IMG/VR virus record: IMGVR_UViG_2904150443_000004
Location: 82,368-146,367 of that record
Strand: one strand, 5' to 3'
DNA: 64,000 nt
Source: a virus
Taxonomy: Duplodnaviria > Caudoviricetes
Below are positions 1-62,713 of the stretch, piece after piece. The notes under the pieces are model-generated. The model saw only the letters and a list, made by a program, of their open reading frames with translations. It did no database searches and was not told the origin of the DNA. A program made the position numbers and the translations under genes. Each line of letters starts with the position of its first letter. The first letter of the stretch is position 1.

Positions 1-202
1 ATATAATTTGAATACAATTAAAACAGTAGAACGCAGAACAGAATACTTTTCATTCATTGAAAGACAGGAATTCATTAAAGAGTATTATCGACTTAAAAAG
101 GCATGGTACGCAAGTGATGTTAAAGCATATTATGCAGAGTTGAAAGAGATGATCGATGTCAATCAAATGTTGACTTCGATTTAGAAAATTATAAAAAGGA
201 GA

Positions 203-952
203 ATGTTCATGCCTAGATCAAGAACGTATAAGCTGTTTCATTCGTGTGAGGAAGAAGAGAGTAAAATCTATTTTAAAACTACTATGAAAGATGAATACTT
301 GATAAAGCTTATTAAAATCTGGTTGCTGCGTCTTTCAAATATTGTCCAAGAATATGACTTCGGAACAGATGAGATGATGAAAATCCTTGAGACATTCAAT
401 TGTGTGCAGGTTAATGAAAAAGATGTTAGAACTTACTATGAGGCCAATTTGTATGATATCTGGGAGTATGCGAACACATGGTATTCTGATGAGGAGGTTT
501 ACAGTCCTGAGTTTACTAATCCAGAAGCAGAGAAAGTATTTAAGCTAGTAGTTAAACGCAATGAAGAATGGTATGGAAAGCTTAGATGTGAAGAAAATAA
601 TTCAACACGCAAAAAATTGTGGGAAGAATTATGGAAAGATATTTGTACTAATGAAGATGGCACATTAAATCTTGAGCAGATTCAACGAGAGCTTGCCGAT
701 TTACATTATATGATAGAGCATGTTCCTAAAGTATACAGTGCAGTAACAGGGGACACATTATCTAAGCCAACTTATGCCTCAAAAACGGTTATTAGATTCT
801 ATGAAAATCACTTAAATGAAGTGGTAAAAGATAGGTTTGATGAGGTAATTACTGCTCTTGAAGAAAAGTGGAATAACGCAGATTTAGATGGTGAGGATGG
901 AATTGCTGAAGGGCTTACGTATGCTATTGACTTGATTGAAAATTATAAATGA
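203..952 (+). CDS. hypothetical phage protein
   Basis: 249-aa ORF with AAGGGAG RBS; no recognised motif. Confidence 0.7.
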   Translation: MFMPRSRTYKLFHSCEEEESKIYFKTTMKDEYLIKLIKIWLLRLSNIVQEYDFGTDEMMKILETFNCVQVNEKDVRTYYEANLYDIWEYANTWYSDEEVYSPEFTNPEAEKVFKLVVKRNEEWYGKLRCEENNSTRKKLWEELWKDICTNEDGTLNLEQIQRELADLHYMIEHVPKVYSAVTGDTLSKPTYASKTVIRFYENHLNEVVKDRFDEVITALEEKWNNADLDGEDGIAEGLTYAIDLIENYK

Positions 953-964
953 TAAGAGGAGCGT

Positions 965-1909
965 GTGGAATTATTGAAAAGAGGCTCAAAAGAATATCCT
1001 AGACATGTTTGTGGTTTAAGTGGAGGCAAGGACTCTACGGCGATGGTTATATACATTAAGGAAAACTATCCAGAAATATTTGATAAACTTGAACTATTCT
1101 TCACAGATACGGGAAGCGAACTACCTGAAATTTATACATATCTTGATAGGCTAGAGAAGCATCTAGGAAAGCCCATTCTACGGATTAAAGCTGCTCCAAA
1201 AACAACTGAAAAATTTAAAGTTGTAAGTGGGATAGATGAATCGAATCCTTTCGAGGAACTATTGGAACAATATAACGGTTTTCTTCCAGCACCAAATGCA
1301 AGATGGTGTACCAGAACAATGAAAATTGTCCCTTTAGAACAGTGGATTGGTAAAGACCATTGTGTAAGTTATATTGGGATTAGAGCTGATGAAGAAAGAG
1401 AAGGCTATAACAGCTCAAAAAGCAAGAGTAAAAACATTAAATCTAGATTCTTGTTTCAAGAGGATGGATTAGTACTTAAAGATATTTATCAAATTCTTGA
1501 AAATTCTATTGGACTTCCCGAATATTATAAATGGAGAACAAGATCAGGATGCTATTTTTGTTTTTATCAACGTCGTGTTGAATGGGCTATCTTATATAAT
1601 CTACATCCAGAATGGTATGAGGAATCTAAAAAATATGAAACTCAACATTCTGACGGGAGATTATATACATGGGTGAAAGATAAACCTCTTGAGTATATTG
1701 AACAAAATTCAGTTGAAATAATAATTAGATACATAAAAAAACAATATAAAAAAGCAATAAATAAAAATGTGTTCACCTTCAAAGAGGATGAAATGATAGA
1801 GCTGATTAAAAGTGGGGAACTGAAGAAGCTGCTAGATAGTTGGGACATGAAAAAACTGCATGATATTGATGGCGAAAATAAAGATGGTTGTACAATATGT
1901 GCTATATAG
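965..1909 (+). CDS. phosphoadenosine phosphosulfate (PAPS) reductase family protein
   Basis: SGGKDS PP-loop, FTDTG, RWCT, GIRADE, SGCYFCFYQ, C-terminal CxxC. Confidence 0.85.
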   Translation: MELLKRGSKEYPRHVCGLSGGKDSTAMVIYIKENYPEIFDKLELFFTDTGSELPEIYTYLDRLEKHLGKPILRIKAAPKTTEKFKVVSGIDESNPFEELLEQYNGFLPAPNARWCTRTMKIVPLEQWIGKDHCVSYIGIRADEEREGYNSSKSKSKNIKSRFLFQEDGLVLKDIYQILENSIGLPEYYKWRTRSGCYFCFYQRRVEWAILYNLHPEWYEESKKYETQHSDGRLYTWVKDKPLEYIEQNSVEIIIRYIKKQYKKAINKNVFTFKEDEMIELIKSGELKKLLDSWDMKKLHDIDGENKDGCTICAI

Positions 1910-1924
1910 GGACGGTGCTTCTGA

Positions 1925-2515
1925 TTGGACTGGAAACTTTATCGCGCTAATGGAGAATTTCTTCAGGAGGTGAATTGTCAGTACGATTCACTTGATATCG
2001 CCGTAATGATGTATGATGCTACTAAAATTGAAGTTGATTTCATCAATAAGGAAGCTAGAATACTTGTAATTGGAAATATTACAGAAGTAGAAGAGCTAAA
2101 GAGTAGGCTTCTTAATGTGGGAGCTTGGAAAAGAGAAGGTAGAAAAGCTCCTCATAAACCTTTATTATTATTGTTCTCATTAAGCAAACTACTTAAAGAG
2201 AATAGAAAAACTCTAAAGTTTGATGAAATAAAAAATGAATTCAAGAAAATCCTTCTTAAATTCGGCGGAACAAAGCGACCACATCCTGAGTATCCATTTA
2301 TATATCTTAAAAACGATGGGATTTGGAAGCTTAATGCCGACATTAATGGTAAGCATATGAACAGTGAACAATTGAGTATGCTTGTTGGTGGATTTAATGA
2401 TGATATTTGCTCAATCTTGGAGAATAATCATGAACTAATTGAAGATTTGATTGACATGATATTAGAAGAGTTCTTCCCTAAAGAAGTGCATTGTAGTTTA
2501 TTAGAAGCTATATAA
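1925..2515 (+). CDS. protein with ScoMcrA-like DNA sulfur-binding domain (SBD), no HNH nuclease
   Basis: RKAPHKPLLLL and HPEYPFIYLKNDGIWKL match SBD motifs of phosphorothioate-dependent endonucleases; the ORF ends with no HNH domain. Confidence 0.72.
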   Translation: MDWKLYRANGEFLQEVNCQYDSLDIAVMMYDATKIEVDFINKEARILVIGNITEVEELKSRLLNVGAWKREGRKAPHKPLLLLFSLSKLLKENRKTLKFDEIKNEFKKILLKFGGTKRPHPEYPFIYLKNDGIWKLNADINGKHMNSEQLSMLVGGFNDDICSILENNHELIEDLIDMILEEFFPKEVHCSLLEAI

Positions 2516-2539
2516 GGAATACAATAAAAACAATATTTC

Positions 2540-2857
2540 ATGAGCCAATCACGAAAGGTGGGGTTTGGAGAAATGAAAATCCATGGAGATGCTAGTGATA
2601 ATGAAATAAGTATTGAAATTGGAGATATTATTTCCATAGGAAGCAGTTACTATCTAATTGCTTGGAACTTAAAAGAGTTCCAAAGTGTAAATGGATATCA
2701 TCATGACGGAATTCGATTAGTTAATTTATCTACTAGTACAGTAACAGAGCAGCGTTACGGCAGTATTAGTGAGCTAAAAAGTATCTTGCTTCGTGAAGAT
2801 AGAAAAGTTGTGATATATGATGGTGAGAGTGTAGAAATGATTTTATCTAGAAAATAA
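2540..2857 (+). CDS. hypothetical protein (start probably ATG 2573)
   Basis: ORF bracketed by motif copies 2525 and 2884; GGAG RBS before 2573. Confidence 0.6.
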   Translation: MSQSRKVGFGEMKIHGDASDNEISIEIGDIISIGSSYYLIAWNLKEFQSVNGYHHDGIRLVNLSTSTVTEQRYGSISELKSILLREDRKVVIYDGESVEMILSRK

Positions 2858-2911
2858 AAAGTTAAAACTATACATATAAATGATGAAATATAGATTTTAA
2901 AGGGTGATACT

Positions 2912-3331
2912 ATGAATTTCAATAATAAGATGAATAAACTCAGGGAAGAAATTGAGTTGAAACAGCGTGAGTTAGATATATTGGAAAAGGATAATTTTAA
3001 TCCATTAGGAAAGTGGAGAATTAGCACCGAGGGAGATTGTGAAGGTCGTTCTAAGAAACAGCTTGGGGATTATACAGGTAATTTACTTGATATTGTAAAA
3101 CAATTGAGTAATCAAGCATTCTATTCTCTAGACTGTGAGAGAGTTGAGTATTTACATACAGAACATAAAAAGGAGAGTAAGGAGGTTCATTTTAGGGTTA
3201 TAGATAAAAGCATAAAACTGTTTGATAAAGATGAGCAATTACGTAAGTTGTTACCACATGTTTCCGAAGGTCATTCTTTAAGTCATGGTTATTATTTTGG
3301 CGCTGTGAAGTTGGAATGGGAAGAAAAGTGA
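2912..3331 (+). CDS. hypothetical phage protein
   Basis: 139-aa ORF with RBS; TEGDCEGR motif. Confidence 0.65.
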   Translation: MNFNNKMNKLREEIELKQRELDILEKDNFNPLGKWRISTEGDCEGRSKKQLGDYTGNLLDIVKQLSNQAFYSLDCERVEYLHTEHKKESKEVHFRVIDKSIKLFDKDEQLRKLLPHVSEGHSLSHGYYFGAVKLEWEEK

Positions 3332-3356
3332 AACCTAATCTATTCTAAAAGGAGAA

Positions 3357-3608
3357 GTGATAATTATCGGTAAAACTATTTGTAAGTTTATTGCTTATAC
3401 ATTAATTGGCGTTATTCTTTATTTCTCGATATTCATGCCTGAACTATCAATTACTTTAACTGGTGGTTTTGCATGGGCTGCTGTTCTATTATCTTATGGT
3501 TTTGGATTTATTCTTGTCTACATTGGTTTGTTTGGAGGAGAGTTCACTTACAGCTCTAAAGGTATTAAGGGTTGGATTAAGGAAATGAGAAAAAGAAACC
3601 AAAAATAA
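3357..3608 (+). CDS. small membrane protein
   Basis: two hydrophobic segments, AAGGAG RBS. Confidence 0.6.
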   Translation: MIIIGKTICKFIAYTLIGVILYFSIFMPELSITLTGGFAWAAVLLSYGFGFILVYIGLFGGEFTYSSKGIKGWIKEMRKRNQK

Positions 3609-3638
3609 ATAATAAAAACATGTAAGGGGATTTATGAA

Positions 3639-3998
3639 ATGAATAAACGAGATCTTGATATTGATCTTGTAATATGCAATGCTGCAACTCCTTTGCCATG
3701 GTTTGTACACAACACTCAGCTTGGAAGATGCCATACGTACACCAGCATTGACGGTGTATTAACGATGGTAGCAGAAGATGCTCATACAGCAGATGCAATA
3801 TTCATTGCGGCAGCACGCGAAGGTTGGCCTGAAGCCATTAGCAGAGCAATATCAGCTGAAAGAGAGGTAGATAGGCTCCAAAAGGCATTACATGAGATCA
3901 ACGATCATATAAGAGGCACATCTAATCCAATATCATATATTGTAGAAACACTACATCAGACATTGCCAGAATACATAGAAAAAGCACCTGAATTTTAA
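3639..3998 (+). CDS. phage protein (Ead/Ea22-like ATP.PW / FIAAAR motif)
   Basis: ATPLPW ... DAIFIAAAREGWP. Confidence 0.55.
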   Translation: MNKRDLDIDLVICNAATPLPWFVHNTQLGRCHTYTSIDGVLTMVAEDAHTADAIFIAAAREGWPEAISRAISAEREVDRLQKALHEINDHIRGTSNPISYIVETLHQTLPEYIEKAPEF

Positions 3999-4032
3999 CA
4001 TGTAATGAAAGCATCCTTTCATGGGATAGGAG

Positions 4033-4689
4033 GTGAATGGAATAGCACTTAAATTACCGACTGTTGAAGAAATTAAACAATCAAGACTTAGGTGTAAAGA
4101 GGAGGGACAGCTTGAGCGTGTAACATGTGGATTTACTGGACATAGACCAAGTAAGTTAGGTGGTTGCTACAGTTTAAAGCATCCTGAATCTCTTAGAATT
4201 GTGGAGACTCTTAAGCCAATACTTGAGCAACTAATTAATGAAGAAGGAATCAGACAGTTCATTTCAGGTGGAGCTATTGGATTTGATCAAATTGCATTCT
4301 GGACTGTTCAGTCATTGAAAAAGCAATATCCTGAACTTGTAAATATTGTAGCGGTTCCTTTTAAAAATCAACCGTGCAAATGGACAGATAAGGAGACTCT
4401 TCACTGGTATAACAAAATGCTTCAGGTGGCAGATGAGGTTATTTATGTTGACACTCTCGACAAATACAGTGTTGATGGAACAAAAGTTGAAGAATATCAT
4501 GTAGCAAAAATGCAGAAGAGAAATGAATTCATGGTTGATAAGAGTAGAGTAATGATTGCCTGTTATGATGGGTCAAGAGGTGGTACTGGAAATTGCGTAG
4601 CTTATCTAACAAAGAAGGGAAAAACACTATATCAAATCAATCCAAATTATAATTATAAACTGGAAGTGAGATATGGAATATTCCATTGA
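4033..4689 (+). CDS. SLOG superfamily protein (DUF1273/YspA-like)
   Basis: FTGHRP, SGGAIGFDQ, RNEFMVD, GGTGNCV. Confidence 0.8.
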   Translation: MNGIALKLPTVEEIKQSRLRCKEEGQLERVTCGFTGHRPSKLGGCYSLKHPESLRIVETLKPILEQLINEEGIRQFISGGAIGFDQIAFWTVQSLKKQYPELVNIVAVPFKNQPCKWTDKETLHWYNKMLQVADEVIYVDTLDKYSVDGTKVEEYHVAKMQKRNEFMVDKSRVMIACYDGSRGGTGNCVAYLTKKGKTLYQINPNYNYKLEVRYGIFH

Positions 4690-5497
4690 GGAGGATGAAA
4701 GAATGTCAAAAAAATATAAATATTATCAAATAGGGTTTGCCGAAAGAGAGTCTGATATAAAATTAATTGATGACATTGTAACTTTCTTTGGAAGTGTTGA
4801 AGTAATAAAAGAAATTGAAAACTCAGGTAGACAGAATCTTTGGTCAACATCGAAATTTTATCATCTCGCTTACTCTCTATTTTTCTTTTCGATTAGGGAA
4901 AGGTATTGCGATGCAGCAAGACATAAAGAAGCTGTAAAATATAAAAAATCAAGTGAACTTGAGAATTTACCAATATTAATAGTATAGGATCATAGTGGAT
5001 AGGAGATGGAAATGACAATTAACATTAATAAACCAAGTTGCTACGAATTAAAGTTATTCATTACAAAAGGCACATTACTTATTGCTAATACAAGCGAGTT
5101 CGATTTAACAGAGGGTAGGATATATGCAGCCATGAGAAACCAAGGAGATAGCACTTTCGGTGATTGCATCTTCATTAAGAATAACAAGGGTAATGTAGAA
5201 GATTATACATTAGAGAACTTTTGTCTATACGAAGGGGAAATAGTATCACAATAACTTCAAAAATATCTAAACTACTTCTATCAACGGAATAAAACATATC
5301 TTTCATGCAGTGATTAAAATATTTGAGCTAATCTTCATGATGATGCTAATCATTGCTAGGGGAGTATGTTGATGAAAAATTTTAAAAGTAAAAGATGATA
5401 CAAAGACGTTCGAGCATAATTGGAATCGAAGAAAGATGCAAATAGAGTTTGGGATAAGGTTGATGATTGGTTAGACATCTTACAGTAAAAATAAAAT

Positions 5498-5519
5498 AGA
5501 CCGTCACAATGGACGGTCT
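5498..5519 (-). terminator. intrinsic terminator of the minus-strand gene
   Basis: AGACCGTC/GACGGTCT stem next to an A-tract (U-tract on minus strand). Confidence 0.7.
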
Positions 5520-5527
5520 GCCCTGAA

Positions 5528-5830
5528 TTAGATGACTTTGATATGCCATGTCCAGATATGAACGCCATTCTTATATCCGTAAATAACAGCATTTCCATAA
5601 CCTTTAGTCACAACTTTAAGTGTTGGTCTTATTTCTACCACCGAGAAACCAGATACTACTTCAAAACGAAGATCATCTCTAGGAAGCGGATAAGCGCCAC
5701 CATAATACAGTTCTACGTATGTGTCTCCTGCTGCTGCTTCAACAGATGTTGCGGGTGTTAAGGTGATTCCAACAATTGTGCTCAAAGCCAGTGATGTACA
5801 AAGAAGAATTTTTTGAAGTGATATTTTCAA
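5528..5830 (-). CDS. small secreted protein (moron)
   Basis: N-terminal signal peptide ending near VEAA, GGAGG RBS on minus strand, own terminator. Confidence 0.75.
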   Translation of the reverse strand: MKISLQKILLCTSLALSTIVGITLTPATSVEAAAGDTYVELYYGGAYPLPRDDLRFEVVSGFSVVEIRPTLKVVTKGYGNAVIYGYKNGVHIWTWHIKVI

Positions 5831-7189
5831 GAAAATAACCTCCTTTTACTGGTATACGTTCAATAGCAGTCTAACATACTATAAAAAGGAAATCAATGAA
5901 ATAATAGACATCTATGGGGTTCCTTACTTCTTAATCACATGTGGAGAATAAAGAGTAGAGAGAGTTTAAAAGATTGGTCATTTAGGGGAGTTATTATTAG
6001 CTAGAATAAAATCAAATCAAATTTTTATGAGGTGATATTAAATGAACTTTGATCTTGTGTATCTTGAACCGCTTAGTATTCATGCTTATAGAAGACCTGA
6101 TTGTGGAATTCCACTGGTTACAGGAGTGTACTTTATTGAACCAGATGAACACCTTGAAGGTAGACTGTGTTATGAAGTAACCTATGAAGATGGATACAAA
6201 GATTATGTAACTAAGAGTGATGTAGATGAGGGGAAATACAGATTTTTAGTTAAATAAAATATATATAACTACTATATATTATACTTATGGAGGAAAAAAT
6301 TGAAAAAATTTATTTGTGAAGTAGTTAAAAAAGATAGGTATGAAATTGAAATCGATGATCAAATGTTAGATGAGGACTGGATGGAGCGTTTTAATTTCTG
6401 TAATAGGCTTGAATACGACTGTCTTGAAGAACATGCAGTACGCATCTCTAAACATATGTCAAAAAGTTATGACAGTTATATTGATGGATATGGATACCCT
6501 CTTATCAATGGGCATAAGCACTATGCTGCGTTTGATTATCAAGTTGAATCTGGTATAAATATCAAGATTCTCAATGATGAGGATGATATTGAAGTAGATG
6601 TTTTTGAGATATAAAATTACGTTTTTATCATACATAAGGAGGAATCTGTTATGGGGATTATTGATAAATTTAAGGGTTGGTTTGGTAAGAAGGAGATGGA
6701 GAGTGCTATTGATAGCATCAATATGGAAAAAGCGAAACAAGATATCAGTGATGCTGCAAGCAGACTTATTGAAGCGTTCGGAACTCTTTCAAAGAGTATG
6801 GAATATCAAATGAATAACAAAGATATTTGTGAACATGGAAATGAAATTGAACGCTTGACTAAGATTATGAGCAACACAAAAAACAAAAGAATTAAAAAGA
6901 AATTGTTGAAGAGAATCGAGATTCTTAAAGAAAGTGGGTTCTAAAAAAGTGAATAATATAAATATTGAAAAGGTGTTTGTAAATCAGTTTGGCTCGAAAA
7001 AATGGTTCGAAGTTCATTTTAAGTATGATGAACAAACTATCAGTATTAATCTTGACCTTGAGGAAATGAAAAAGCTAGGAGTAACAAAGTCTTTGAATGG
7101 TACAAAAAAGCTAAGAGAATGGCTAATGTCTGATAAAGGCTATGACTATATTAAACGCAGTATGAAATAACTATTTCAAAGGAGATTAA

Positions 7190-7291
7190 ATGCAATTTTA
7201 TATACCATTATGGGCAATTCCAGTTATTGGCACTGTTATTATTGTTGGGATTATTTCAATTTGGAAGGTGCTAAGAAAACCTTTAGGTTAA
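7190..7291 (+). CDS. 33-aa single-TM peptide MQFYIPLWAIPVIGTVIIVGIISIWKVLRKPLG
   Basis: AAGGAG RBS immediately after motif copy 7163; below the ORF-track cutoff. Confidence 0.55.
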   Translation: MQFYIPLWAIPVIGTVIIVGIISIWKVLRKPLG

Positions 7292-7553
7292 ATTATATGA
7301 AATTAAATAAAATAAATATATGAGGTGATAAAATGAGTATGCAATATGGAGCTGACGATAAGAGCAAAGTTGGAGAGTTAGTTCAAAAATTATTGGATTC
7401 ATGGCCTTATGATGATGAATACTTGAAGATTCGAGTACATTATTCGGATGGATCTTGGTTTGTAACACGAGACCATAAATAAGTAGGTTATAAATTCTTG
7501 ATTTTATAAAAAAGACAGCCTCACCGTAGCAAGACCGCCTTAACCAAATCTAT

Positions 7554-7793
7554 TTAATTGATAAGCAATGACCATTGCCACTCGAAGTCAAAGTGATTGC
7601 GAAGAATCCACTTATTTGTATCTTCGAGATCGCCTGAACAACTATTACCTGAACTACATAAAAAATAAACAGGTTTATCAAACTGCTCTGAGATCGAGTT
7701 TCTAATAATAAAGTAACTATCAGGATTTTTTTCAAGCTTCCAAGATAACATTACTACTACAAATTCTTTTTTCACAAAGTATTTAAATTGCAT
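7554..7793 (-). CDS. hypothetical protein (minus-strand moron)
   Basis: strong AAAGGAGTGA RBS on minus strand. Confidence 0.6.
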   Translation of the reverse strand: MQFKYFVKKEFVVVMLSWKLEKNPDSYFIIRNSISEQFDKPVYFLCSSGNSCSGDLEDTNKWILRNHFDFEWQWSLLIN

Positions 7794-7927
7794 AATATCA
7801 CTCCTTTCAAGAATTATTTTAAGAGGGCTCTCCTCTTTAAGCTAATTATGCAGAAAAATATGAGATTAAAGTAAGAAAATCGGTTCTACCTTGTTCAATA
7901 AAATTTTAAAAAAGGAGATTCAAAATT

Positions 7928-8215
7928 ATGAATGAAATCAAAATCAAACGTGAACTGCTAGAAAAGTATGGGCTACCTGATTGTGGAATCAATGGAGTGA
8001 AACTTATTAGAGATGATATTACAGACAATTCAAGATGGTCAATTCACCATGAAATAATTTTCAAGTGGACTGATGGGAAATTCTATAGAGCGTATTATTC
8101 TGTAGGTGCAACAGAATCACAAGATGAGGCTCCATGGGAATACGAGGATGAAGTCGAATGTGTAGAGGTGTATCAAGTTGAGAAGATGGTCAAAGTTTGG
8201 GAAGATGTTTTATAA
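7928..8215 (+). CDS. conserved phage hypothetical protein
   Basis: RWSIHHEIIF...GATESQDE motif; AAGGAG RBS. Confidence 0.65.
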   Translation: MNEIKIKRELLEKYGLPDCGINGVKLIRDDITDNSRWSIHHEIIFKWTDGKFYRAYYSVGATESQDEAPWEYEDEVECVEVYQVEKMVKVWEDVL

Positions 8216-8649: not shown

Positions 8650-9885
8650 ATGAAGAAGCGGATTATTATGCTTGTGGATATGCAATCATTTTACGCAAGT
8701 GTTGAAAAGGCGATGCAACCACAATATAAGGACATGCCATTAATTGTTGCAGGAGATCCAGCTAGAAGATCTGGAATTGTTCTTGCTGCATGTCCAATAG
8801 CAAAGAGCTACGGAATTTCAACCGCAGATAGACTTTGGGAGGCACTTAATAAGTGTCCTGACGTTGTAGTTATTCAACCTCATCTGCAACAATATATAGA
8901 CGTTTCCATGCAAATTACGACGATCCTAGAAACGTACACTGATTTGGTGGAACCGTATTCGATAGATGAACAGTTCATTGATGTAACGAACTCCATTCAT
9001 CTCTTTAATATGACTCCCGAAGAATTGGCTGCTGACATTCAGCAACAGATACTACATCAGACAGGAGTATGGGCTAGAGCAGGAATCGGAGAAAACAAGA
9101 TCATCGCTAAAATGTGTTGTGACATGCTGGCGAAGAAAAATAAATCAGGAATCTTCACTTTAAGAAAAGACGAGTTAGACAAGCATCTCTGGCAAAAGCC
9201 AGTTGAAGATATGTGGGGCGTAGGCTCCCGAATGAAACGGCACTTTTATCGTATGGGAATTAGAACGATAGGAGATTTAGCCAGAACCCCACTCCCTAAG
9301 TTAACGAAAAAATGGGGCGTTAACGGTCAAGTTTTATGGCAGTGTTCGAATGGAATCGATAATTCTCCCGTTACAAAGGATTCACATAGTGGGCAAAAGG
9401 TTATTGGTAATGGTATGACTCTTCCAAGAGATTACGCTGAGGTTTGGGAAATAAACGTGGTAATCATGGATATGGTTAATCAAGTTTGCAGAAGGTGCAG
9501 ACAAAAGAAGGTAAGAGGTTCTGTCTTAAATGTGAGCTGCATGGGAGCTGATTGGGATCATCCAACAGGATTCAATCGACAGATTAAACTAATGGATGCC
9601 ACCAATGTAACTACAACAGTATATAAAGCAGCGGTTGACTTATTCCATAAATTTTGGGATGGTGAACCAATTAGACGGATTGGAGTATCAATGTCTGGAT
9701 TAGAAAGTGATGAAGTATATCAATTAACACTTTTCGATGATCAGGTTAAAAATAGAAAGATTGATCAAGTTATGGATGCGGTAAGAGATAAGTTTGGAGA
9801 GACATCAATAGCATGGGCAAGCACATTTACCTCAGCAGGACAGACAATGGATCGTGCATCTAAGATTGGGGGTCATTATAAATGA
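8650..9885 (+). CDS. uvrX: Y-family translesion DNA polymerase (UvrX/DinB/UmuC-like)
   Basis: VDMQSFYASVE, YSIDEQF, WGVG, C-terminal QLTLF clamp motif. Confidence 0.93.
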   Translation: MKKRIIMLVDMQSFYASVEKAMQPQYKDMPLIVAGDPARRSGIVLAACPIAKSYGISTADRLWEALNKCPDVVVIQPHLQQYIDVSMQITTILETYTDLVEPYSIDEQFIDVTNSIHLFNMTPEELAADIQQQILHQTGVWARAGIGENKIIAKMCCDMLAKKNKSGIFTLRKDELDKHLWQKPVEDMWGVGSRMKRHFYRMGIRTIGDLARTPLPKLTKKWGVNGQVLWQCSNGIDNSPVTKDSHSGQKVIGNGMTLPRDYAEVWEINVVIMDMVNQVCRRCRQKKVRGSVLNVSCMGADWDHPTGFNRQIKLMDATNVTTTVYKAAVDLFHKFWDGEPIRRIGVSMSGLESDEVYQLTLFDDQVKNRKIDQVMDAVRDKFGETSIAWASTFTSAGQTMDRASKIGGHYK

Positions 9886-10761: not shown

Positions 10762-11277
10762 ATGAGCCAAAGTCCATTGTATAAAAAGATGATTTCTCTT
10801 ACTCCAGCTTTAAATGGTGTTATTGAAGTTGCTTCTGAAGTAAAGCAAGCTAGAGAGGATTTTAATAGAAGGTATCCCAAGGTGACTGGTCACATCGCAG
10901 AACATCTAGATGAATATATAAAGGATGAAGATATCCGTATTGCTAAGGAAAAATTCATATCTTATATGAACCGACTATCTTACGATGACGTGGTTATTAT
11001 AGATGCAATAATGCTTGTGGGCAGACAAGAGAAAGATCCTGAAGAATATATTCAGGCCAAAGTTGAAACTGAAAAAGAAGGATACGAATGGCTTGAGCCG
11101 GAAGAAGGTGTTTTTGATTCACCTCAGAAAAAGGTATTTGATTATTTAAAGTACATAAAGAGCTTAAATACAACTAAAACGGAAATTATCTTCTCGATGA
11201 TGGAGAAAGCGCCTTTAATCGATTTCTTACAGCGAGGAATGCATATTCTCGATATTCAAGACAAGACCAGAGTTTAA
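10762..11277 (+). CDS. hypothetical protein (possible DUF3775-like)
   Basis: AIMLVGR motif; strong AGGAGG RBS. Confidence 0.5.
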   Translation: MSQSPLYKKMISLTPALNGVIEVASEVKQAREDFNRRYPKVTGHIAEHLDEYIKDEDIRIAKEKFISYMNRLSYDDVVIIDAIMLVGRQEKDPEEYIQAKVETEKEGYEWLEPEEGVFDSPQKKVFDYLKYIKSLNTTKTEIIFSMMEKAPLIDFLQRGMHILDIQDKTRV

Positions 11278-32963: not shown

Positions 32964-33905
32964 ATGCTTGATATCTGTTCAATTGAACTGGGATTTGGTT
33001 GGACAAAGGGAACATTCAAGAATAGGGTGTTTAGGCAGCCATCAATAACAGGTGAATCTAAACCAATGTTTGATTACAAGAAGGATGATTTTGTATTCAA
33101 TGAGCAATACTTTGTGGGCGACTTAGCACTTAGACAAAGTGACATTAAGTATTTTTCAATGAAAGATAACAAAGCAAGTGAGATTGATGTTACTGACACC
33201 TTACTTCAGACAGGGATAGGATACTTAACACGTTCTGCCCCTTGTAATGTAATTAGTACATTACCCATCAAGTTTTATTTCAACCAGAAGGAAGAACTAG
33301 AAAATAAAATATTGGATTTAAACAACATCGAACCATATAATATAAGATGTGGACTAAGAAATTCTTTCTCGGTAACACCCAATATTCATGAGATTAAAAT
33401 CACACCCCAAGGACAAGGGATAGCAATGGACTTCCTTCTAGATAATGAAGGTAAGATTGCAAAGAGAGAATTTGCAAAGAAGAGAATCCTTGTCTTGGAT
33501 TTAGGCTTCTACACATTAAATATATTGGGCTTAGATAAGTTAGAAATTATGCCTCTTTCAACCACACTTCTGCTCGGTGTGGATACAGCATATAAATTAC
33601 TTCAGCGTTATATTCAAGAGAAAGTTGGGAAGTCTCCAGCACGATACGAGTTAGATCAATACGTTATCTCTGGAAGATATGAGGGATATGACATTAGGCC
33701 ACTGATTAAGCGAGCATTTAAAGCCTTAGCGATTCAAATTCAAAATGAAGTTGAAGGGTTGAATGTAAGTTTTGATGTTTGTTTAATTGGTGGAGGAGCA
33801 GCACATCAAATTTTCGAATTTATTAGTTTTGAGGAGAAATATTTATTTGACCAGTTAGCCCAAGTAAGAGGTAATGAGAAGATAGGTATGAGAACATGGA
33901 AGTGA
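32964..33905 (+). CDS. ParM/StbA-family actin-like ATPase
   Basis: IELGFGWTK, PQG, VLDLGFYT and IGGGA actin-fold motifs. Confidence 0.85.
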   Translation: MLDICSIELGFGWTKGTFKNRVFRQPSITGESKPMFDYKKDDFVFNEQYFVGDLALRQSDIKYFSMKDNKASEIDVTDTLLQTGIGYLTRSAPCNVISTLPIKFYFNQKEELENKILDLNNIEPYNIRCGLRNSFSVTPNIHEIKITPQGQGIAMDFLLDNEGKIAKREFAKKRILVLDLGFYTLNILGLDKLEIMPLSTTLLLGVDTAYKLLQRYIQEKVGKSPARYELDQYVISGRYEGYDIRPLIKRAFKALAIQIQNEVEGLNVSFDVCLIGGGAAHQIFEFISFEEKYLFDQLAQVRGNEKIGMRTWK

Positions 33906-42529: not shown

Positions 42530-42754
42530 TGTGGGATACATTGAAGCGATAGCTAATGTTGATTCATTAAGGAGAAGCATTAGAGAACTTTCGCAAATCT
42601 CTTGGGATGAAGTCTTATCACACGTCCCTGAGTCATATGATTTGTTAAATGAGGTTCAGCAGTATATTAAAAGTATCGATGACTCGTCCAAAGAACTTGA
42701 GCTGTTTTTCAAATGAAATCATGTTTCTATTTTATTAATGAAAGGGAAATTAGA

Positions 42755-43534
42755 TTGAATAGTCCAATTAAATGGGTTGGTGGAAAGTCAAGAATGGTTA
42801 AAAAGATGATTCCACTAATTCCTAATCATAAAGGGTATGTTGAAGTTTTTGGAGGAGCAGCATATTTACTATTCGGCAAGGATAGATCTAACTGGGAGAT
42901 TGTTAATGATTTAGATAATGGTCTAATGAACTTTTGGTTTGTAGTTAAGAATGCAAAAGAAGAATTTCTAAATAGCTTCAAGTACACATTAATCAGCCGA
43001 GAGACATTCAATGATTATAAAAAGAAATGGAAAACTGGTAATATTCATGATTCAATTGAAAGAGCACATGTATTCTATTATCTAGTAAATGCAGGCTTTG
43101 GGGCTGATATGAAGAATCCTGTTTTCGGGACAAAAAAAGATAAATTTCCATTGCAGCTAGATAAAATTCATCGAGATATTGATGAAGCCTATGAAAGAAT
43201 TAAAACTGTGGTAATTGAACAATTAGATTTTAGAAAATGCATAGAAAAGTACGACAGCGACGACACTTTCTTTTATATCGATAGCCCATATAGAAACACT
43301 AAAGAGTATGCTGTGGGAAAGTTTACAGACAATGATTATGAAGATTTATATCGTATTTGTAAAAACTGCAAGGGAAAGTGGCTTTATACAATAAACAATG
43401 ATGAATACATAAGAGATTTATTCAAAGAATTCAACATAATTAATCATGAAGTTTATTATAGCGTTTGTAAAACAAACAGCGGAAGACAGGAATTTAAAGA
43501 GTTAATTATTACTAACTATGATATAACAGAATAA
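42755..43534 (+). CDS. DNA adenine methyltransferase (D12/Dam class)
   Basis: PIKWVGGKS, YVEVFGG, NDLD, FYIDSPY (DPPY variant), ELIITNY. Confidence 0.88.
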   Translation: MNSPIKWVGGKSRMVKKMIPLIPNHKGYVEVFGGAAYLLFGKDRSNWEIVNDLDNGLMNFWFVVKNAKEEFLNSFKYTLISRETFNDYKKKWKTGNIHDSIERAHVFYYLVNAGFGADMKNPVFGTKKDKFPLQLDKIHRDIDEAYERIKTVVIEQLDFRKCIEKYDSDDTFFYIDSPYRNTKEYAVGKFTDNDYEDLYRICKNCKGKWLYTINNDEYIRDLFKEFNIINHEVYYSVCKTNSGRQEFKELIITNYDITE

Positions 43535-44471: not shown

Positions 44472-44825
44472 CTGCTAATAGTGTGGGATTCAAAGACAGG
44501 TAATGTAGAAAGATTCATTAATAAGTTAAGCGTAAGCAATATAAGAATACATAGTGAGTTAATAGTGGATGAACCGTTTGCTCTAGTAACATACACCACT
44601 AAATTCGGAGAAGTTCCAGGCACCACTTTGCAATTTCTAAAGAGTAACTACATGAACCTAAAAGGAGTTGCATCAAGTGGAAACAAAGCATGGGGAAATT
44701 ACTATGGCATGGCTGCTAGTAAAATAGCCGAGATGTACAGTGTACCAATCGTATTAAAGTTTGAGTTAAGTGGAACTAAATCAGATGTTGAATTATTTTT
44801 AATGGAGGCTAAAAAGATTGTCTAA
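44472..44825 (+). CDS. nrdI: ribonucleotide reductase flavodoxin NrdI (probable CTG start)
   Basis: DSKTGNVERF, SSGNKAWG, KFELSG. Confidence 0.9.
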   Translation: MLIVWDSKTGNVERFINKLSVSNIRIHSELIVDEPFALVTYTTKFGEVPGTTLQFLKSNYMNLKGVASSGNKAWGNYYGMAASKIAEMYSVPIVLKFELSGTKSDVELFLMEAKKIV

Positions 44826-47800
44826 CATTCCTAAGTATATTTCTTTAAACAATGAAATCATGATTCAAAAAGAAGGTAGATTCCAATTTGAAAAAGACAA
44901 AGAAGCAGCAAAGAGCTACTTTGTAGATCATGTTAATCAAAATACGGTATTTTTCCATGATCTAAAAGAGAAACTTGATTACCTTGTGGAAAATGACTAT
45001 TACGAAAAAGAGTTCCTTGATAAATATACGTTTGAACAGATCAAAGAGGTTTTTAATATCACATACAGTAAGAAGTTCAGATTTTCATCTTACATGAGTG
45101 CGTTTAAGTTCTATAATGATTATGCATTGAAAACGAATGATAAAAGTAAAATACTTGAAAGATATGAAGATAGACTATCTATTATGGCTCTATATTTGGC
45201 AGATGGTGACTTTAATAAGGCCAAGGATTTCATACATATTTTTATTGGTCAGGAGTATCAACCAGCAACGCCAACAACGTTGAATGCAGGGAAGAAGAGA
45301 AGAGGAGAACTTGTTAGTTGCTTCTTACTGGAGTGTAACGATTCACTGAACGATATTTCTAAGACGGTTGATATTGCGATGCAGCTATCAAAAATTGGTG
45401 GAGGCGTATCAATTAACCTGTCCAAGATTCGAGCTAAGGGAGAGGCAATAAAGGATATTGAGAATGCCACCAAAGGCGTTGTCGGTGTCATGAAGTTATT
45501 TGATCATGCCTTTAGATATGCAGATCAGATGGGGCAAAGGCAAGGATCTGGTGCTGTATACTTAAACGTATTTCATCGTGATATTATTGATTTCCTCGAT
45601 ACGAAAAAAATAAATGCAGACGAGGATTTTCGAGTTAAAACATTATCTATTGGAGTCGTCATTCCCGATAAGATGATTGAACTAGCACGAGAAGATAAAG
45701 ACATGTATACATTCTATCCTCATACTGTTTATAAAGAGTACGGATTACATCTTGATGAGATGGATATGTCTATCATGTATGATGCGTTAATCAATAATGA
45801 TAAGGTAAGGAAAGTTAAGATTAATCCACGTAAATTACTTGAACAGATTGCTGTAACACGGTTCGAATCAGGATACCCATATATTATGTTTCAAGATAAT
45901 GTAAACAAAGTTCATGCGCTTGATGAAAAGGTGAAATTCAGTAATCTTTGTGTTACTGGTGATACGAAACTTCTTACTGAAGATGGCTACGTTGAAGCTA
46001 GAGAACTGTACAAGGAAGGTCATGAACTAATAGTAGTAATTGATAATCGAACAATAAATTATGATAAAAATCAAAAAGGTGTAACCAGTATAGATGCAAT
46101 TCCAATGCAATTAACAGCCAAAAATGCAGAAGTGTTTAAACTTGAAACTAAAGAAGGATTTGAGCTCAAGGCCACCAAGTGGCACAAGATGTATGTACAA
46201 AGAGAAGGAGAAATCATCAAGATTCCTTTGAAAGACGTAAAGGAAGGAGATAAAATACTTGTTCAATCTGGGGCAGGTTCTTTCGGGAAAATTCACTATC
46301 CTGAGCTCGCTTATGTTGCTGGATTAATTGCAGGTGATGGATGTTTGACAGAAAATCAAGCTATTATTTATCTATATGGAGAAAAAGGAAGTCTTTCAAA
46401 AATAGTTGAAGATAAAGTAAAATACATAATCGATAAATCTTTAGATAGAAGTATTGAATACAAGCATAATGCTGATTATGCACCAACATTTAATGTTAAT
46501 CTTGAACAGAATAGAAAGACGTTACACAGCGGCCTGTTGCTGAAAATAATGAAAGAGTATGGTATACGTTCTGAAACAAAAACGAAAATTCCAGATTTCG
46601 TTTTTTATGGCGATAAAGAAACACAAGCAGCATATCTTAGTGGTATTTACCAAATGGATGGCACGGTTAACTGTAATGCTAAATATAAAGCAGGAACAAT
46701 TGAACTTGTTCAAACAAATGAAAAATTCCTACAAGAAATTCAAATGATGTTACTCAACATGGGAATTTACAGCACAATCTATTCTGCCCATAAAGAAGGT
46801 AACCGTATTATGCCTGATGGAAATGGAGGAACTAAAGAATATTACTGTAAACAAACATATAAAATCAGTGTACAAGATAGAACATCGAGAGAATTGTTTA
46901 ATGAAATTATTGATTTAAAACCAAACGACAAACAAAAGCTTGTTGACTTTACAGCTACACTGCAACCAGTCTCACGACAACCAAAGCATAACTATCAAGC
47001 TACAGTCACATCAATTGATTTCTATGGTATAGAAGACGTATATGATACAACACAAGAAGATTATCATTCATTGATATTTAACGGGATAGTTACTGGAAAC
47101 TGTTCTGAGATTCTTCAAAAGTCAGAAGTCTCTACCTATGCTGACTACGGTCATGAAGATTTCATAGGTCAAGATATTTCATGTAACTTAGGTTCAATAA
47201 ACATAGCTAATGTAATGGATAATAAATCGATAGAAAAAGCAGTTAAATTGGCTATCGATGCCTTAACTTTTGTGTCTGATTCAACTGATATTAAAAATGC
47301 TCCTGCCGTAAGGAAGGCAAATGAATTAATGCATTCTGTTGGTCTTGGAGCAATGAATTTGCACGGTTTCTTAGCAAAAAACAGAATTCAATACCAAAGT
47401 GAAATTGCACGAGATTTTGCTAATACATTTTTCATGATGGTGAATTACTATTCACTTGTGCGTTCTATGGAAATAGCAAAAGAACGTGGCGAAACGTTCA
47501 ATGGATTTGATAAATCTAAATACGCAACAGGTGAATACTTTGAACAGTATCTAGAAACAGATTTTTCACCAACCACCGATAAAGTAGAACAACTATTCGA
47601 TGGTATATATATTCCTACAATTAACGATTGGAATTGGTTGAAAGAACAGGTTATGAAACATGGATTATATCATGCATATCGCTTGGCAATTGCACCAACA
47701 GGAAGTATTTCGTATGTTCAGTCAAGCACTGCTGGAGTTATGCCAATCACGGAACGCATTGAAGAGCGCACATATGGAAACTCAAAAACATATTATCCAA

Positions 47801-48060
47801 TGCCATTTCTAAACGAAAGTAACTGGTTCTACTATACTGAAGCTTATGACATGAATATGTTTGATGTTGTTGATATGATATCTAGCATTCAAAAGCATGT
47901 CGATCAGGGTATCTCATTTACATTGTTTTTGAAAGATACGATGACAACACGGGATCTAACAAAAATTGATCTATATGCACATCATAAAGGGATTAAAACA
48001 ATCTATTACGCAAGAACAAAGAGAACTAAGCAAGACGAATGTTTGTCCTGTACAGTATAG
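44818..48060 (+). CDS. nrdE: class Ib ribonucleotide reductase alpha subunit with intein
   Basis: QPATPT, SCFL, SNLC|...|CSEI, APTGSISY, C-terminal ECLSCTV. Confidence 0.96.
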   Translation: MSNIPKYISLNNEIMIQKEGRFQFEKDKEAAKSYFVDHVNQNTVFFHDLKEKLDYLVENDYYEKEFLDKYTFEQIKEVFNITYSKKFRFSSYMSAFKFYNDYALKTNDKSKILERYEDRLSIMALYLADGDFNKAKDFIHIFIGQEYQPATPTTLNAGKKRRGELVSCFLLECNDSLNDISKTVDIAMQLSKIGGGVSINLSKIRAKGEAIKDIENATKGVVGVMKLFDHAFRYADQMGQRQGSGAVYLNVFHRDIIDFLDTKKINADEDFRVKTLSIGVVIPDKMIELAREDKDMYTFYPHTVYKEYGLHLDEMDMSIMYDALINNDKVRKVKINPRKLLEQIAVTRFESGYPYIMFQDNVNKVHALDEKVKFSNLCVTGDTKLLTEDGYVEARELYKEGHELIVVIDNRTINYDKNQKGVTSIDAIPMQLTAKNAEVFKLETKEGFELKATKWHKMYVQREGEIIKIPLKDVKEGDKILVQSGAGSFGKIHYPELAYVAGLIAGDGCLTENQAIIYLYGEKGSLSKIVEDKVKYIIDKSLDRSIEYKHNADYAPTFNVNLEQNRKTLHSGLLLKIMKEYGIRSETKTKIPDFVFYGDKETQAAYLSGIYQMDGTVNCNAKYKAGTIELVQTNEKFLQEIQMMLLNMGIYSTIYSAHKEGNRIMPDGNGGTKEYYCKQTYKISVQDRTSRELFNEIIDLKPNDKQKLVDFTATLQPVSRQPKHNYQATVTSIDFYGIEDVYDTTQEDYHSLIFNGIVTGNCSEILQKSEVSTYADYGHEDFIGQDISCNLGSINIANVMDNKSIEKAVKLAIDALTFVSDSTDIKNAPAVRKANELMHSVGLGAMNLHGFLAKNRIQYQSEIARDFANTFFMMVNYYSLVRSMEIAKERGETFNGFDKSKYATGEYFEQYLETDFSPTTDKVEQLFDGIYIPTINDWNWLKEQVMKHGLYHAYRLAIAPTGSISYVQSSTAGVMPITERIEERTYGNSKTYYPMPFLNESNWFYYTEAYDMNMFDVVDMISSIQKHVDQGISFTLFLKDTMTTRDLTKIDLYAHHKGIKTIYYARTKRTKQDECLSCTV
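45949..47100 (+). mobile_element. intein (384 aa) with LAGLIDADG homing endonuclease in NrdE
   Basis: starts CVTGDT, ends IVTGN before the catalytic C(SEI); VAGLIAGDG and LSGIYQMDG blocks. Confidence 0.93.
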
Positions 48061-60569: not shown

Positions 60570-62243
60570 GTGGTTACTCTAAGAGGAAGTGAAAAATTAA
60601 ATAAAGAAATGTTTTTAGCCTTGATCGATTTGGTCAAGGTTATTATTTATGTGCGCGTATCAACTGATGACCAAGCAAAACACGGTTATTCATTGGAGTC
60701 ACAAATAGAACGGTGTGCTGAGCACCAAAAACAGAAATACAATGCCGACGATGATGAAATCTTGGTTATCGTGGAAGAAGGGGAATCTGGAGATAATCCA
60801 GACAGACCTGCATTGAACTATTTATTGTATCTTGTAGAAGAAGGTATGGGGAGAGTCGTATATGTTCTTCACCCAGACAGATTAAGTAGATTTCTTCATC
60901 TGCAAACTAATGTATCGATGAGAATCTGGAACGCAGGATGCGATCTACAATTTGTTGAGTTTGATTTGGATAAAGATAATCCTGAATCAATGCTTATGTA
61001 CAATATTCAGGGCTCTATCTCTCAGTACAATAAAGCTAAAATATTGGCAAACAGTAAACGAGGTAAAAGGCAAAAAGCCAAGAAGGGAAAGTTAAATGGA
61101 GGGAAACGATTTTACGGTTATATATACGATAAAGAAACAAGTAATCTGAGCGTGAATGAATTTGAAAAAGAGATATACTTGAGAATGGTGTCAATGCTAT
61201 TAGAAGAGGATTGTTCTTGCTCAGACATTGCGAGACAACTAGCAGAGGATAATGTAGCTGCACCAAGCGGAAACTACTGGTATCAATCCACAGTAACAAG
61301 AATACTTAGGAATGAGTTGTATACTGGCATATCATATTATGGAAAAACTGAAGTAATTCAAACTCAAGGTAAGAAGAAGCAGGTCAAAAGAAAGCAAGAA
61401 GATTGGATACCAGTTGCTGTTCCTGCTTACATAACGAATGAAACTTATCTCGATATTCAAAAGAAAATTGATAGCCTAAGTAAAGTAAAAAGTGGAAGGC
61501 CAACACAATCTTATTTGCTTAAGGGGCTAAGCAGATGTGGAAGATGTGGAGCTGCTGCATCAAGTGGTATAACTTCAGTTACTAAAAGAGGAATACTAAA
61601 GTATTACACATGCAATAACAAAAGTAAGAAAGAGTTTGAAGTGGGAACGGGAAGAGTAAGGAAGAAATGTAGGGGGCGTAATTGGCGAGTCGACCATATC
61701 GACAATTTTGTGTGGGAGTATATACTGAGTTTAATATATGACCCAGTTCCTTATATAGAGACAATTATTAAGAAAAAAACGAACATCAGCAATAATGAGG
61801 TAATAAACAAAAGATTGAAAAAGTTAGAAAAAGCAATGAAGGAACAGGAGTTTGCAAAGGAACGCTACATCGACTTATATGCATGTGGCATGATCAAGAG
61901 CAAAGAAGACCTAGAAAAGAAGACAAAACCTATTGAAGAAAAGATCAAAGATATGAGCTCTCAAATTTCGATATTAAATGAAGAAAAAAAATTATATGAA
62001 AACAAAAATAATGAAATTGATCAAATGAAAACGATGCTAGAACATTATTCAAAGATAATTGATCCAGAAAACGTACCTTTTGAAATGAAGCGAAAGTTGG
62101 TCAAAGCACTTATTCATAGCGTAACCCTAAACGACAACATGACTATAGACGTAGTGCTTAAGGTTTCAGACTCAATTGGTGCAATTTCTTCTGTAAATAA
62201 ACATAGAAACCAAAGCACTAGCCAAAGCCATGGAGGATCATAA
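60570..62243 (+). CDS. large serine recombinase (prophage integrase)
   Basis: YVRVST catalytic motif, DRLSR, recombinase domain, CGRCG zinc ribbon, coiled coil. Confidence 0.95.
   Translation: MVTLRGSEKLNKEMFLALIDLVKVIIYVRVSTDDQAKHGYSLESQIERCAEHQKQKYNADDDEILVIVEEGESGDNPDRPALNYLLYLVEEGMGRVVYVLHPDRLSRFLHLQTNVSMRIWNAGCDLQFVEFDLDKDNPESMLMYNIQGSISQYNKAKILANSKRGKRQKAKKGKLNGGKRFYGYIYDKETSNLSVNEFEKEIYLRMVSMLLEEDCSCSDIARQLAEDNVAAPSGNYWYQSTVTRILRNELYTGISYYGKTEVIQTQGKKKQVKRKQEDWIPVAVPAYITNETYLDIQKKIDSLSKVKSGRPTQSYLLKGLSRCGRCGAAASSGITSVTKRGILKYYTCNNKSKKEFEVGTGRVRKKCRGRNWRVDHIDNFVWEYILSLIYDPVPYIETIIKKKTNISNNEVINKRLKKLEKAMKEQEFAKERYIDLYACGMIKSKEDLEKKTKPIEEKIKDMSSQISILNEEKKLYENKNNEIDQMKTMLEHYSKIIDPENVPFEMKRKLVKALIHSVTLNDNMTIDVVLKVSDSIGAISSVNKHRNQSTSQSHGGS
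62215..62240. other. attR junction (approximate)
   Basis: the host spoVK frame begins at about AAA GCC ATG GAG GAT (K-A-M-E-D); the integrase stop lies on the host side. Confidence 0.7.
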
Positions 62244-62631: not shown

Positions 62632-62713
62632 GGTATACTGTACAACGTATATGGTCAATGATCATAGTTCGATGGAAATATGGATGATGAACCGATAAGG
62701 AGAATGTACGCGA

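Follow-up and report, generated by a model that had tools for sequence, protein, structure and literature searches.

To our knowledge, the established DNA phosphorothioation systems (Dnd, Ssp, BREX type 4 and Tdp) are all cellular. In the present work, a locus with two adjacent genes was analyzed in a provirus from IMG/VR (Duplodnaviria, Caudoviricetes; record IMGVR_UViG_2904150443_000004) and compared with these systems. The stretch under analysis, referred to below as the window, is the final 64 kb of this 146,367-bp element, and the two genes, ORF1 and ORF2, lie on its plus strand between positions 965 and 2515. ORF1 is related to SspD, and ORF2 carries a domain related to the sulfur-binding domain (SBD) of enzymes such as ScoMcrA, which read phosphorothioate (PT) sites in DNA.

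The SspD of the SspABCD(-SspE/FGH) system has been described as an ATP pyrophosphatase that forms complexes with the cysteine desulfurase SspA and probably accepts sulfur from it (PMC7188994). ORF1 resembles this protein in its full-length match to the SspD profile, its PP-loop and its five conserved cysteines; unlike the canonical system, the provirus lacks sspA, sspB and sspC, two host genomes lack SspB, and the SspD of phage type (approximately 311 amino acids, aa) forms a separate clade in prophages of Paenibacillus and Bacillus and is followed by a protein of about 50 aa. ORF2, in turn, shares SBD sequence, fold and pocket with the SBD-HNH type IV enzymes (ScoMcrA, SprMcrA, EcoWI), from which it differs in having no HNH domain, a score below the family cut-off and a foreign module fused at its N-terminus. 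BrxP of BREX type 4 is described as an SspD-SspB fusion working with BrxC. The brxP-mcrA-brxC arrangement of that system resembles the phage pair in that a PT writer gene of PAPS-reductase type has a neighbour, mcrA, which is reported to take its name from the PT-dependent restriction enzyme of S. coelicolor and not to be needed for PT synthesis (PMC12914056). The phage module differs from BREX type 4 in that DUF4007 and BrxC/SspC are missing and its reader is nuclease-free. The likeness of ORF1 to TdpC, from the Tdp system of thermophiles, is one of analogy only, a single gene, tdpC, being stated to suffice for PT synthesis there (PMC12914056).

No solitary SspD clade borne by phages was found described in the literature searched, and neither was a small partner protein or an HNH-less SBD fusion, with the limit that such cases could appear in the supplementary tables on gene neighbourhoods that accompany PMC12914056 and PMC7461809. 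PADLOC matches to "SspD" have been reported from Sinorhizobium prophages, and these are weak (1e-11 to 1e-15; PMC12429752). The new elements are the phage-type SspD clade, its conserved partner of approximately 50 aa and the natural fusion of this small protein to an SBD, the component families SspD and SBD being already known.

The SspD-like gene and its SBD-bearing neighbour

ORF1 (965..1909, + strand; 314 aa, or the 311-aa form found in databases when the alternative TTG start at 974 is used) was assigned as a phage-type, SspD-family PP-loop ATP pyrophosphatase/sulfurtransferase. The PADLOC profile for SspD (PDLC02782) matched residues 13-313 along positions 1-276 of its 277, with an E-value of 5.5e-90, while Pfam PAPS_reduct matched at E 5.3e-12 and the profiles of DndC, BrxP and MnmA were far weaker (E 1e-9 to 0.02; 1e-6 to 1e-9 for DndC and BrxP in PADLOC). 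Five cysteines (C115, C196, C199, C309 and C312) are conserved: the first three, together with the PP-loop SGGKDS (nt 1019-1036), were identical in 78 out of 78 canonical SspD sequences, and C309 and C312 in 76 of the 78. Identity to SspD homologues of approximately 270 aa from other sources ranged between 45 and 54%. ORF1 is accordingly best annotated, as far as its sequence allows, as a true SspD-family PP-loop enzyme and not merely as a generic PAPS reductase, which confirms and sharpens an earlier annotation of this locus (hereafter the original prediction), where it had been placed in the PAPS-reductase family.

A profile scan found no ORF for SspB or SspC anywhere in the 146-kb provirus, and no sspA or cysteine desulfurase gene was found in it either. 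DUF4007 (SspB) was absent from the four records searched (the provirus, two Paenibacillus host genomes and a second provirus of 128.7 kb), the same search recovering it in all three genomes with canonical ssp loci that served as positive control; DndC was found in none of three lysogen genomes. ORF1 is solitary: sspB and sspC do not lie alongside sspD, and the locus is not a member of the SspABCD system.

Relatives of ORF1 with at least 60% identity and without sspB or sspC were restricted to the window, L002 (Paenibacillus medicaginis), L003 (a prophage of Paenibacillus sp. HGH0039), L097 (a short metagenome contig) and L088 (in the second provirus, G003); these and L277 (G576:C1:219000-235000, reverse strand) are the six phage-type loci with DNA available. 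In databases, relatives of approximately 311 aa and 55-76% identity were found in Paenibacillus, Bacillus subtilis, B. velezensis, B. halotolerans and B. infantis. The alignment of phage-type SspD comprised 28 sequences, with 55-76% identity and 70 invariant positions. In the phylogenetic tree, a quick search rooted with five generic viral PAPS reductases on long outgroup branches, the 16 phage-type rows formed a single clade (SH-aLRT 98), sister to all 84 canonical rows (SH-aLRT 94) and outside any SBD-linked canonical group. This analysis places the SspD of the window in a separate "phage-type" clade without sspB and sspC.

The searches also indicate that this clade is rare. A phage-type locus was found in one of 401 Bacilli genomes searched with ORF1, and at least one was present among the matches listed in the metagenome SspD scan. 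With the profile of the small partner protein, whole-genome searches that counted the seed genome gave 1/7, 1/136 and 1/93, and the search of 401 genomes gave three with a match. Among GenBank/INPHARED phages, no DNA match was obtained for window positions 900-2900 and no tblastn match for ORF2; ORF1 matched seven records only, each at 41.5% identity or less, with no close copy.

Two of the phage-type genes are damaged. In L088 (9992-10500, IMG/VR provirus) sspD is interrupted by frameshifts and stop codons, and in L277 (reverse strand, 4516-8034) it is split by an insertion of approximately 2.7 kb with a 451-aa ORF, taken as a candidate transposase; the adjoining small gene is intact in both.

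ORF2 (1925-2515, + strand; 196 aa) starts 15 nt after the 3' end of ORF1, and both genes were located where the original prediction had put them. The motifs APHKPLLLL (residues 75-83, nt 2147-2173) and PEYPF..L..DG.W (residues 121-134, nt 2285-2326), which had been read there as hallmarks of a ScoMcrA-type SBD, were recovered, and the domain (2090..2515, + strand; residues 56-196; ScoMcrA/SprMcrA type, no HNH) was independently recognized by profile, sequence and structure searches. NCBIfam NF045808 ('phosphorothioated DNA-binding restriction endonuclease') matched residues 57-195 with E 1.5e-31, along only positions 2-149 of its 284; the score of 109.6 bits lies under the curated cut-off of 180 bits, and ORF2 is not a member of the SBD-HNH enzymes by this measure. 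Solved SBD chains of SprMcrA (7ccj) were matched by phmmer at E 7e-4. When the AlphaFold model of ORF2 (pLDDT 84.2) was compared with the PDB using Foldseek, a structural check that had been suggested along with the prediction, every top-ranked match was a solved SBD of SprMcrA, ScoMcrA or Hga (7ccj, 5zmo, 8h0l), with probability 1.00, TM-scores on the target of 0.64-0.72 for isolated domains and 14 matches at E <= 0.001; the first row that was not an SBD had E 1.9e-3 and probability 0.30. A Pfam search gave no SBD match for ORF2, although PF26340 is precomputed for relatives.

The sulfur pocket of ScoMcrA has been described as H116, R117 (lysine in most homologues), Y164 and P165 (PMC6224610). 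In ORF2 the first two of these positions are occupied by H77 and K78 of APHKP (nt 2147-2161) and the last two by Y123 and P124 of PEYPF (nt 2285-2299), W134 being present too, and A75, P76, H77, K78, Y123 and P124 were invariant in an alignment of 24 sequences. Sequence, modelled fold and pocket residues of the SBD are intact. In an alignment with 22 SBD relatives, ORF2 terminates at the SBD/HNH boundary, where the relatives run on into the HNH domain, and no HNH remnant was detected in the 146-kb provirus when the HNH half of the nearest SBD-HNH protein was used as tblastn query (best E 0.09). The absence of the nuclease, also claimed beforehand, was therefore corroborated.

The original prediction had left open that the pairing of the two genes was coincidental. 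The frequency of the pair was evaluated in 80 genome and 80 metagenome loci around SspD relatives, and in 87 IMG/VR loci around PAPS-reductase relatives, all ORFs being scanned with SBD, SspB, SspC and SspD profiles; an SBD gene was considered directly downstream if it started within 400 nt after sspD. Among the genome loci, 78 of 80 contained sspB or sspC, and 11 had an SBD directly after sspD (10 of the 78 canonical loci, and L003). Among the matches listed for the metagenome loci, sspB or sspC was present in 72 of 80 and an SBD lay directly downstream in five; the eight without sspB or sspC were one phage-type locus, six in which the locus started at a contig end, and L138. The latter contig has a canonical-type sspD (5899-6834, 39% identity to ORF1) but, despite 6 kb of upstream DNA, neither an SspB nor an SspC match in the locus, and may be another case of a solitary or rearranged sspD. 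In contrast, an SBD was found downstream of viral PAPS-reductase relatives in none of 84 IMG/VR loci, namely those whose PAPS reductase reached at least 150 bits on a broadened profile, mostly 27-37% identical to ORF1. Based on these counts (11/80 and 5/80 vs. 0/84), Ssp islands repeatedly contain the sspD-SBD junction, and chance does not account for the phage pair. A neighbourhood survey had also been proposed as a check, and in it the SspD/SBD pair recurred in the Paenibacillus prophage L003 and, by protein evidence, in P. ottowii.

The proteins encoded after sspD were not only of the SBD-HNH kind, SBD fusions with DUF4007, STAND NTPases, NERD-kinase-STAND and NOV_C being represented as well. 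SBD-effector fusions 3' of canonical sspD were located at L136:6822-8162, L167:6809-9127, L044:10776-13127, L014:10817-15331, L081:10846-11925 and L030:11039-12358. From the sequences surveyed, the SBD seems to serve Ssp islands as a PT-sensing module of general use, common beside sspD and joined to several effectors. Since canonical sspD regularly has SBD-effector genes next to it, the phage pair looks derived from an Ssp-SBD-HNH arrangement rather than invented from scratch. A published neighbourhood analysis that started from the SBD-HNH side reports such links as rare (<3.6% near dnd; PMC7461809). In IMG/VR, a scan with ORF2 alone gave 14 pattern matches, none of which was confirmed, and a scan with the SBD alignment gave 16 loci (14 full SBD-HNH and two fragments), none adjoining SspD.

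The small acidic protein and its fusion to the SBD

The first 50 residues of ORF2 (1925..2074, + strand) were assigned, by tblastn and alignment, to a family of small acidic proteins. With the first 58 residues as tblastn query, a separate small ORF was found after the phage-type sspD in L002, L003, L097, L088 and L277, and the small protein was hence encoded 3' of phage-type sspD in six out of six loci with DNA available; it was not found by tblastn in canonical ssp loci. The reading of ORF2 as an SBD protein therefore stood for the SBD part, whereas its first ~50 residues proved to be a conserved module of their own, and in the proposed two-gene module the pairing held, a third conserved part, this cysteine-containing protein of approximately 50 aa, having been overlooked.

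The family is tiny. Fourteen stand-alone homologues (48-74 aa) were found in a collection of 5.8 billion proteins, and 12 clusters among 1.84 billion representatives. The homologues begin with M-D/E-W-K-L, and therefore TTG at 1925, not ATG at 2006, is the supported start of ORF2; the public gene call starts at ATG 2006 (169 aa) and hides the small-protein module (window 1925-2005). Residues W3, K4, L5, N17, C18, Q19, Y20, D21, D24, A32 and F39 were invariant in the alignment of small proteins, including the motif NCQYD, whose Cys18 (nt 1976-1978) is the sole invariant cysteine. All 17 members are acidic, with pI values of 4.05-4.79. The AlphaFold2 model of the small protein (pLDDT 96.6) predicts a beta-beta-alpha-beta-beta topology (beta-hairpin, helix, beta-hairpin), with Cys18 at the start of the predicted helix.

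Searches for relatives of this protein gave little. The structure search returned generic beta-beta-alpha-beta-beta folds only, the best being of the kind of GB1 (Z 4.7); there was no Foldseek match at E <= 0.001 and no Pfam family, and ESM Atlas gave one unnamed cluster at 0.75, which is a lead only. Comparison with the SspB, SspC and SspD profiles using hhalign gave probabilities of 0.25% or less. Known small sulfur carriers are of the ThiS/MoaD type, with a C-terminal Gly-Gly, and of the TusA type, with a cysteine motif; no member of the present family ends in Gly-Gly.

In ORF2, the small protein is joined to the SBD by a short linker (2075..2089, + strand; residues 51-55). The order in L003 is sspD, a small ORF (10944-11096, 50 aa) and a complete SBD-HNH gene from 11161, so that the position of the linker is taken by a stop codon and an intergenic gap of approximately 65 nt, while the frame in the window is continuous. 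The SBD-HNH protein of L003 is the nearest relative of the ORF2 SBD and reached 278.5 bits on NF045808, above the cut-off of 180. Judging from these comparisons, the small protein is fused in frame to the very N-terminus of an SBD in ORF2, and the HNH has been removed. A second fusion, P0164 (197 aa, Paenibacillus sp. CMAA1739 / P. ottowii), matched over its full length with 48% identity and is one of the 12 representative small-protein clusters; P. ottowii also has an SspD-like protein, P0028, 73% identical to ORF1 (protein evidence), and since the longest contigs of P0028 and P0164 are equal in length (1,266,271), the two genes may be adjacent.

In the SBD tree, the window, P0164 and L003 formed one clade (SH-aLRT 98), in which the two HNH-less fusions were sisters (86). 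Since these sisters share only 48% identity, the fusion without nuclease must be of old date and has been kept since. The simplest reading of these relationships would be an ancestral module composed of sspD, the small gene and SBD-HNH, in which the small gene became joined to the SBD, with loss of the nuclease, in a single old event. Such a fusion speaks for joint action of the small protein and the SBD, and the constant order of sspD and the small gene for action of the small protein with SspD; the fusion is a natural pointer to the three parts, SspD, the ~50-aa protein and the SBD, working together.

Possible functions of the module

We tentatively favour the interpretation that the locus encodes a minimal phage PT writer with a tethered reader or shield for PT sites, to which we would not give even chances. 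With the same reserve, the module as a whole (SspD, the acidic protein of approximately 50 aa and the nuclease-free SBD) may be regarded as a reduced derivative, carried by a phage, of the Ssp machinery for DNA phosphorothioation. During phage development, SspD would receive sulfur from a cysteine desulfurase of the host, with the small protein helping as a persulfide relay or as an SspD-binding adaptor; it would activate a phosphate of the DNA backbone with ATP, and install PT without SspB or SspC, as reported for TdpC. The SBD, tethered to the writer via the small protein, would bind PT sites without cutting them, and could in that position shield them from PT-dependent SBD-HNH nucleases and from PT-sensing effectors; alternatively, it might hold the writer close to sites already marked. 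Housekeeping desulfurases are reported to be able to stand in for DndA/SspA (PMC12914056, PMC12839542), and restriction by SspE is said to be relieved for PT-modified phage (PMC7461809, citing Xiong 2020).

The net effect of such a module would be self-marking combined with anti-restriction, comparable to the orphan methyltransferases of the same phage. The proposed logic is that of phage orphan DNA methyltransferases in general, i.e. a modification enzyme without cognate restriction partner, with the difference that these enzymes methylate bases whereas the SspD module would putatively add sulfur to the backbone. If this solitary SspD does write PT, phages would be shown to use backbone sulfur as a self-mark, and the locus would offer a minimal two-protein writer useful for engineering.

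Several points weigh against a PT-writing role. Ssp and BREX type 4 are reported to need DNA-binding and ATPase partners, brxC being required for PT and brxC alone, without brxP, giving none (PMC12914056). PT synthesis by any solitary SspD is without biochemical precedent, sequence and fold searches detected no similarity of the small protein to known sulfur carriers, and a reader of the product fused to the partner of the writer is not an obvious aid to writing. Moreover, an SBD accompanies the phage-type gene in only two of the six loci with DNA, being absent from the other four; the SBD-HNH protein of L003 can be presumed to cut PT-DNA, which sits badly with a phage that marks its own DNA; and sspD is broken in two of the six loci (frameshifts in L088, insertion in L277), suggesting that the enzyme is dispensable in lysogens. 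These last three observations, taken together, speak against a simple writer-plus-shield arrangement, and four rival explanations were therefore retained.

The rival that survives best, although unlikely, is counter-defence without any writing, in which the SBD would coat PT sites of the host and blind PT-sensing effectors (SspE, SBD-effectors, DndI-type proteins); it may also poison SBD-HNH dimers, while SspD and the small protein would, in hosts that possess an Ssp complex, interfere with it or hijack it. SspE is indeed reported to need PT in host DNA in order to act (PMC9646914). The effector-fused SBDs beside canonical sspD indicate that host SBD sensors exist to compete with, and the HNH domain was lost cleanly and its loss kept in two diverged fusions. 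The uniform acidity of the small protein fits as well, many anti-restriction proteins being acidic. However, with DndC in none of the three lysogen genomes and SspB in neither of two, there would be nothing to counter in those hosts; SspD keeps every catalytic residue, needless for a mere decoy subunit, and the SBD-HNH protein of L003 looks active rather than a decoy. If no PT is written, the SBD, lacking a nuclease, would constitute a naturally occurring protein for binding PT sites or for anti-restriction, and would represent a new class of counter-defence against PT-based immunity.

Ranked below counter-defence, and improbable in our view, is a remnant of prophage defence: an ancestral, Ssp-linked and PT-dependent SBD-HNH protein would have protected the lysogen from PT-modified invaders, the nuclease-less copy of the window would be decaying, and SspD would be a leftover of the donor ssp locus. 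Such an origin is consistent with the full SBD-HNH retained in L003 beside the same SspD and small protein, with SBD-HNH genes in 14 other IMG/VR proviral contigs, with the pseudogenized sspD of L088 and L277, and with the sspD-SBD-HNH junction found in canonical loci. Nevertheless, phage-type SspD forms a well-supported separate clade that is sister to the canonical one and not nested in its SBD-linked group, and it is conserved (55-76% identity over 28 sequences, 70 invariant positions), as is the small protein in six of six loci. The HNH-less fusion, moreover, occurs twice at 48% identity with its pocket residues retained, unlike a decaying gene.

A bolder form of the writer hypothesis, which we hold to be less probable again, is a self-sufficient viral system, in which SspD together with a 50-aa cysteine cofactor would suffice for DNA phosphorothioation in the absence of SspB and SspC, and the fused reader would link recognition to writing, marks being preserved or extended beside existing PT sites. 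If true, this would parallel, at the level of the backbone, maintenance methylation guided by a reader, and no PT writer would have been known from a phage before it.

Quite doubtful, and placed after that form of the hypothesis, is a function unrelated to DNA phosphorothioation, whether the SspD-like enzyme thiolates a tRNA, nucleotide or cofactor or the SBD is a generic winged-helix DNA binder. PP-loop superfamily enzymes are reported to thiolate RNA too (PMC12914056), the SBD is described as a winged-helix domain (PMC10853773), and generic PAPS reductases are common in phages; yet the match of ORF1 to SspD (E 5.5e-90) is far stronger than those to DndC, BrxP or MnmA, the sulfur-pocket residues of the SBD are invariant, and SBD genes adjoin SspD rather than viral PAPS-reductase relatives. 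Least probable of all is a PT eraser, in which the SBD would bring the PP-loop enzyme to PT, sulfur would be adenylated and hydrolysis would restore the phosphate, stripping the host self mark: a reader tethered to an enzyme may suit substrate targeting better than product binding, and the chemistry would formally invert the route through an adenylated intermediate that the Tdp paper carries in its title (reference list of PMC12914056), but no precedent was found in the literature searched, the SBD buries sulfur in its pocket and would hide the substrate (PMC6224610), four of the six phage-type loci have no SBD, and the SspB and DndC searches showed no PT writer belonging to the host in the lysogens examined.

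Genomic setting of the module

The element (G000) is a provirus with the gene content of a large SPbeta-like temperate phage. Genes for DNA polymerase III alpha, ThyX, a UvrD helicase, a Y-family polymerase, an actin-like protein and a class I ribonucleotide reductase with intein are encoded in the window. ORF1 and ORF2 belong to a dense run of co-directional genes, with gaps of 12, 15 and 24 nt. A promoter and terminator scan of window positions 1-5000 gave 20 promoter-like sites (21.7 expected) and no terminators, i.e. nothing above chance.

Besides the SspD module, the provirus carries other self-marking enzymes, namely orphan methyltransferases. A Dam-like D12 methyltransferase of the orphan kind is encoded at window positions 42713-43534 (PADLOC MTase_II, E 4e-46); a methyltransferase domain is also present in a 755-aa protein encoded at G000:C1:49101-51368.

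A DndB-family protein (445 aa; Pfam DndB, E 1.8e-15) is encoded outside the window, beside an MrpR-type repressor (G000:C1:72521-74869, L278:10154-12502). This gene (G000:72521-73858), 10 kb upstream of the module, was evaluated and rejected as a part of it: its product is a YopQ homologue (26% identity, 97% coverage), and since SPbeta-like phages without SspD also carry a YopQ homologue, it probably lies outside the SspD module. The location of a DndB-fold protein in a lysogeny-control region is nonetheless curious.

A YpsA/SLOG-family protein (window 4033-4689), a Y-family polymerase of ImpB/UmuC type (8650-9885) and an actin-like ALP protein (32964-33905) are products of one and the same early-gene array. 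The large subunit of the ribonucleotide reductase (window 44818-48060) is split by an intein with a LAGLIDADG domain, and a second intein-bearing ORF (1040 aa) was detected in the left arm of the provirus (G000:C1:26960-30082). Towards the right end, a large serine recombinase (60570-62243) is followed by the host hflX GTPase gene from position 62714, which corresponds to the end of the prophage, and G+C content climbs from approximately 0.34 to 0.46 within window positions 60570-64000, marking the attachment region.

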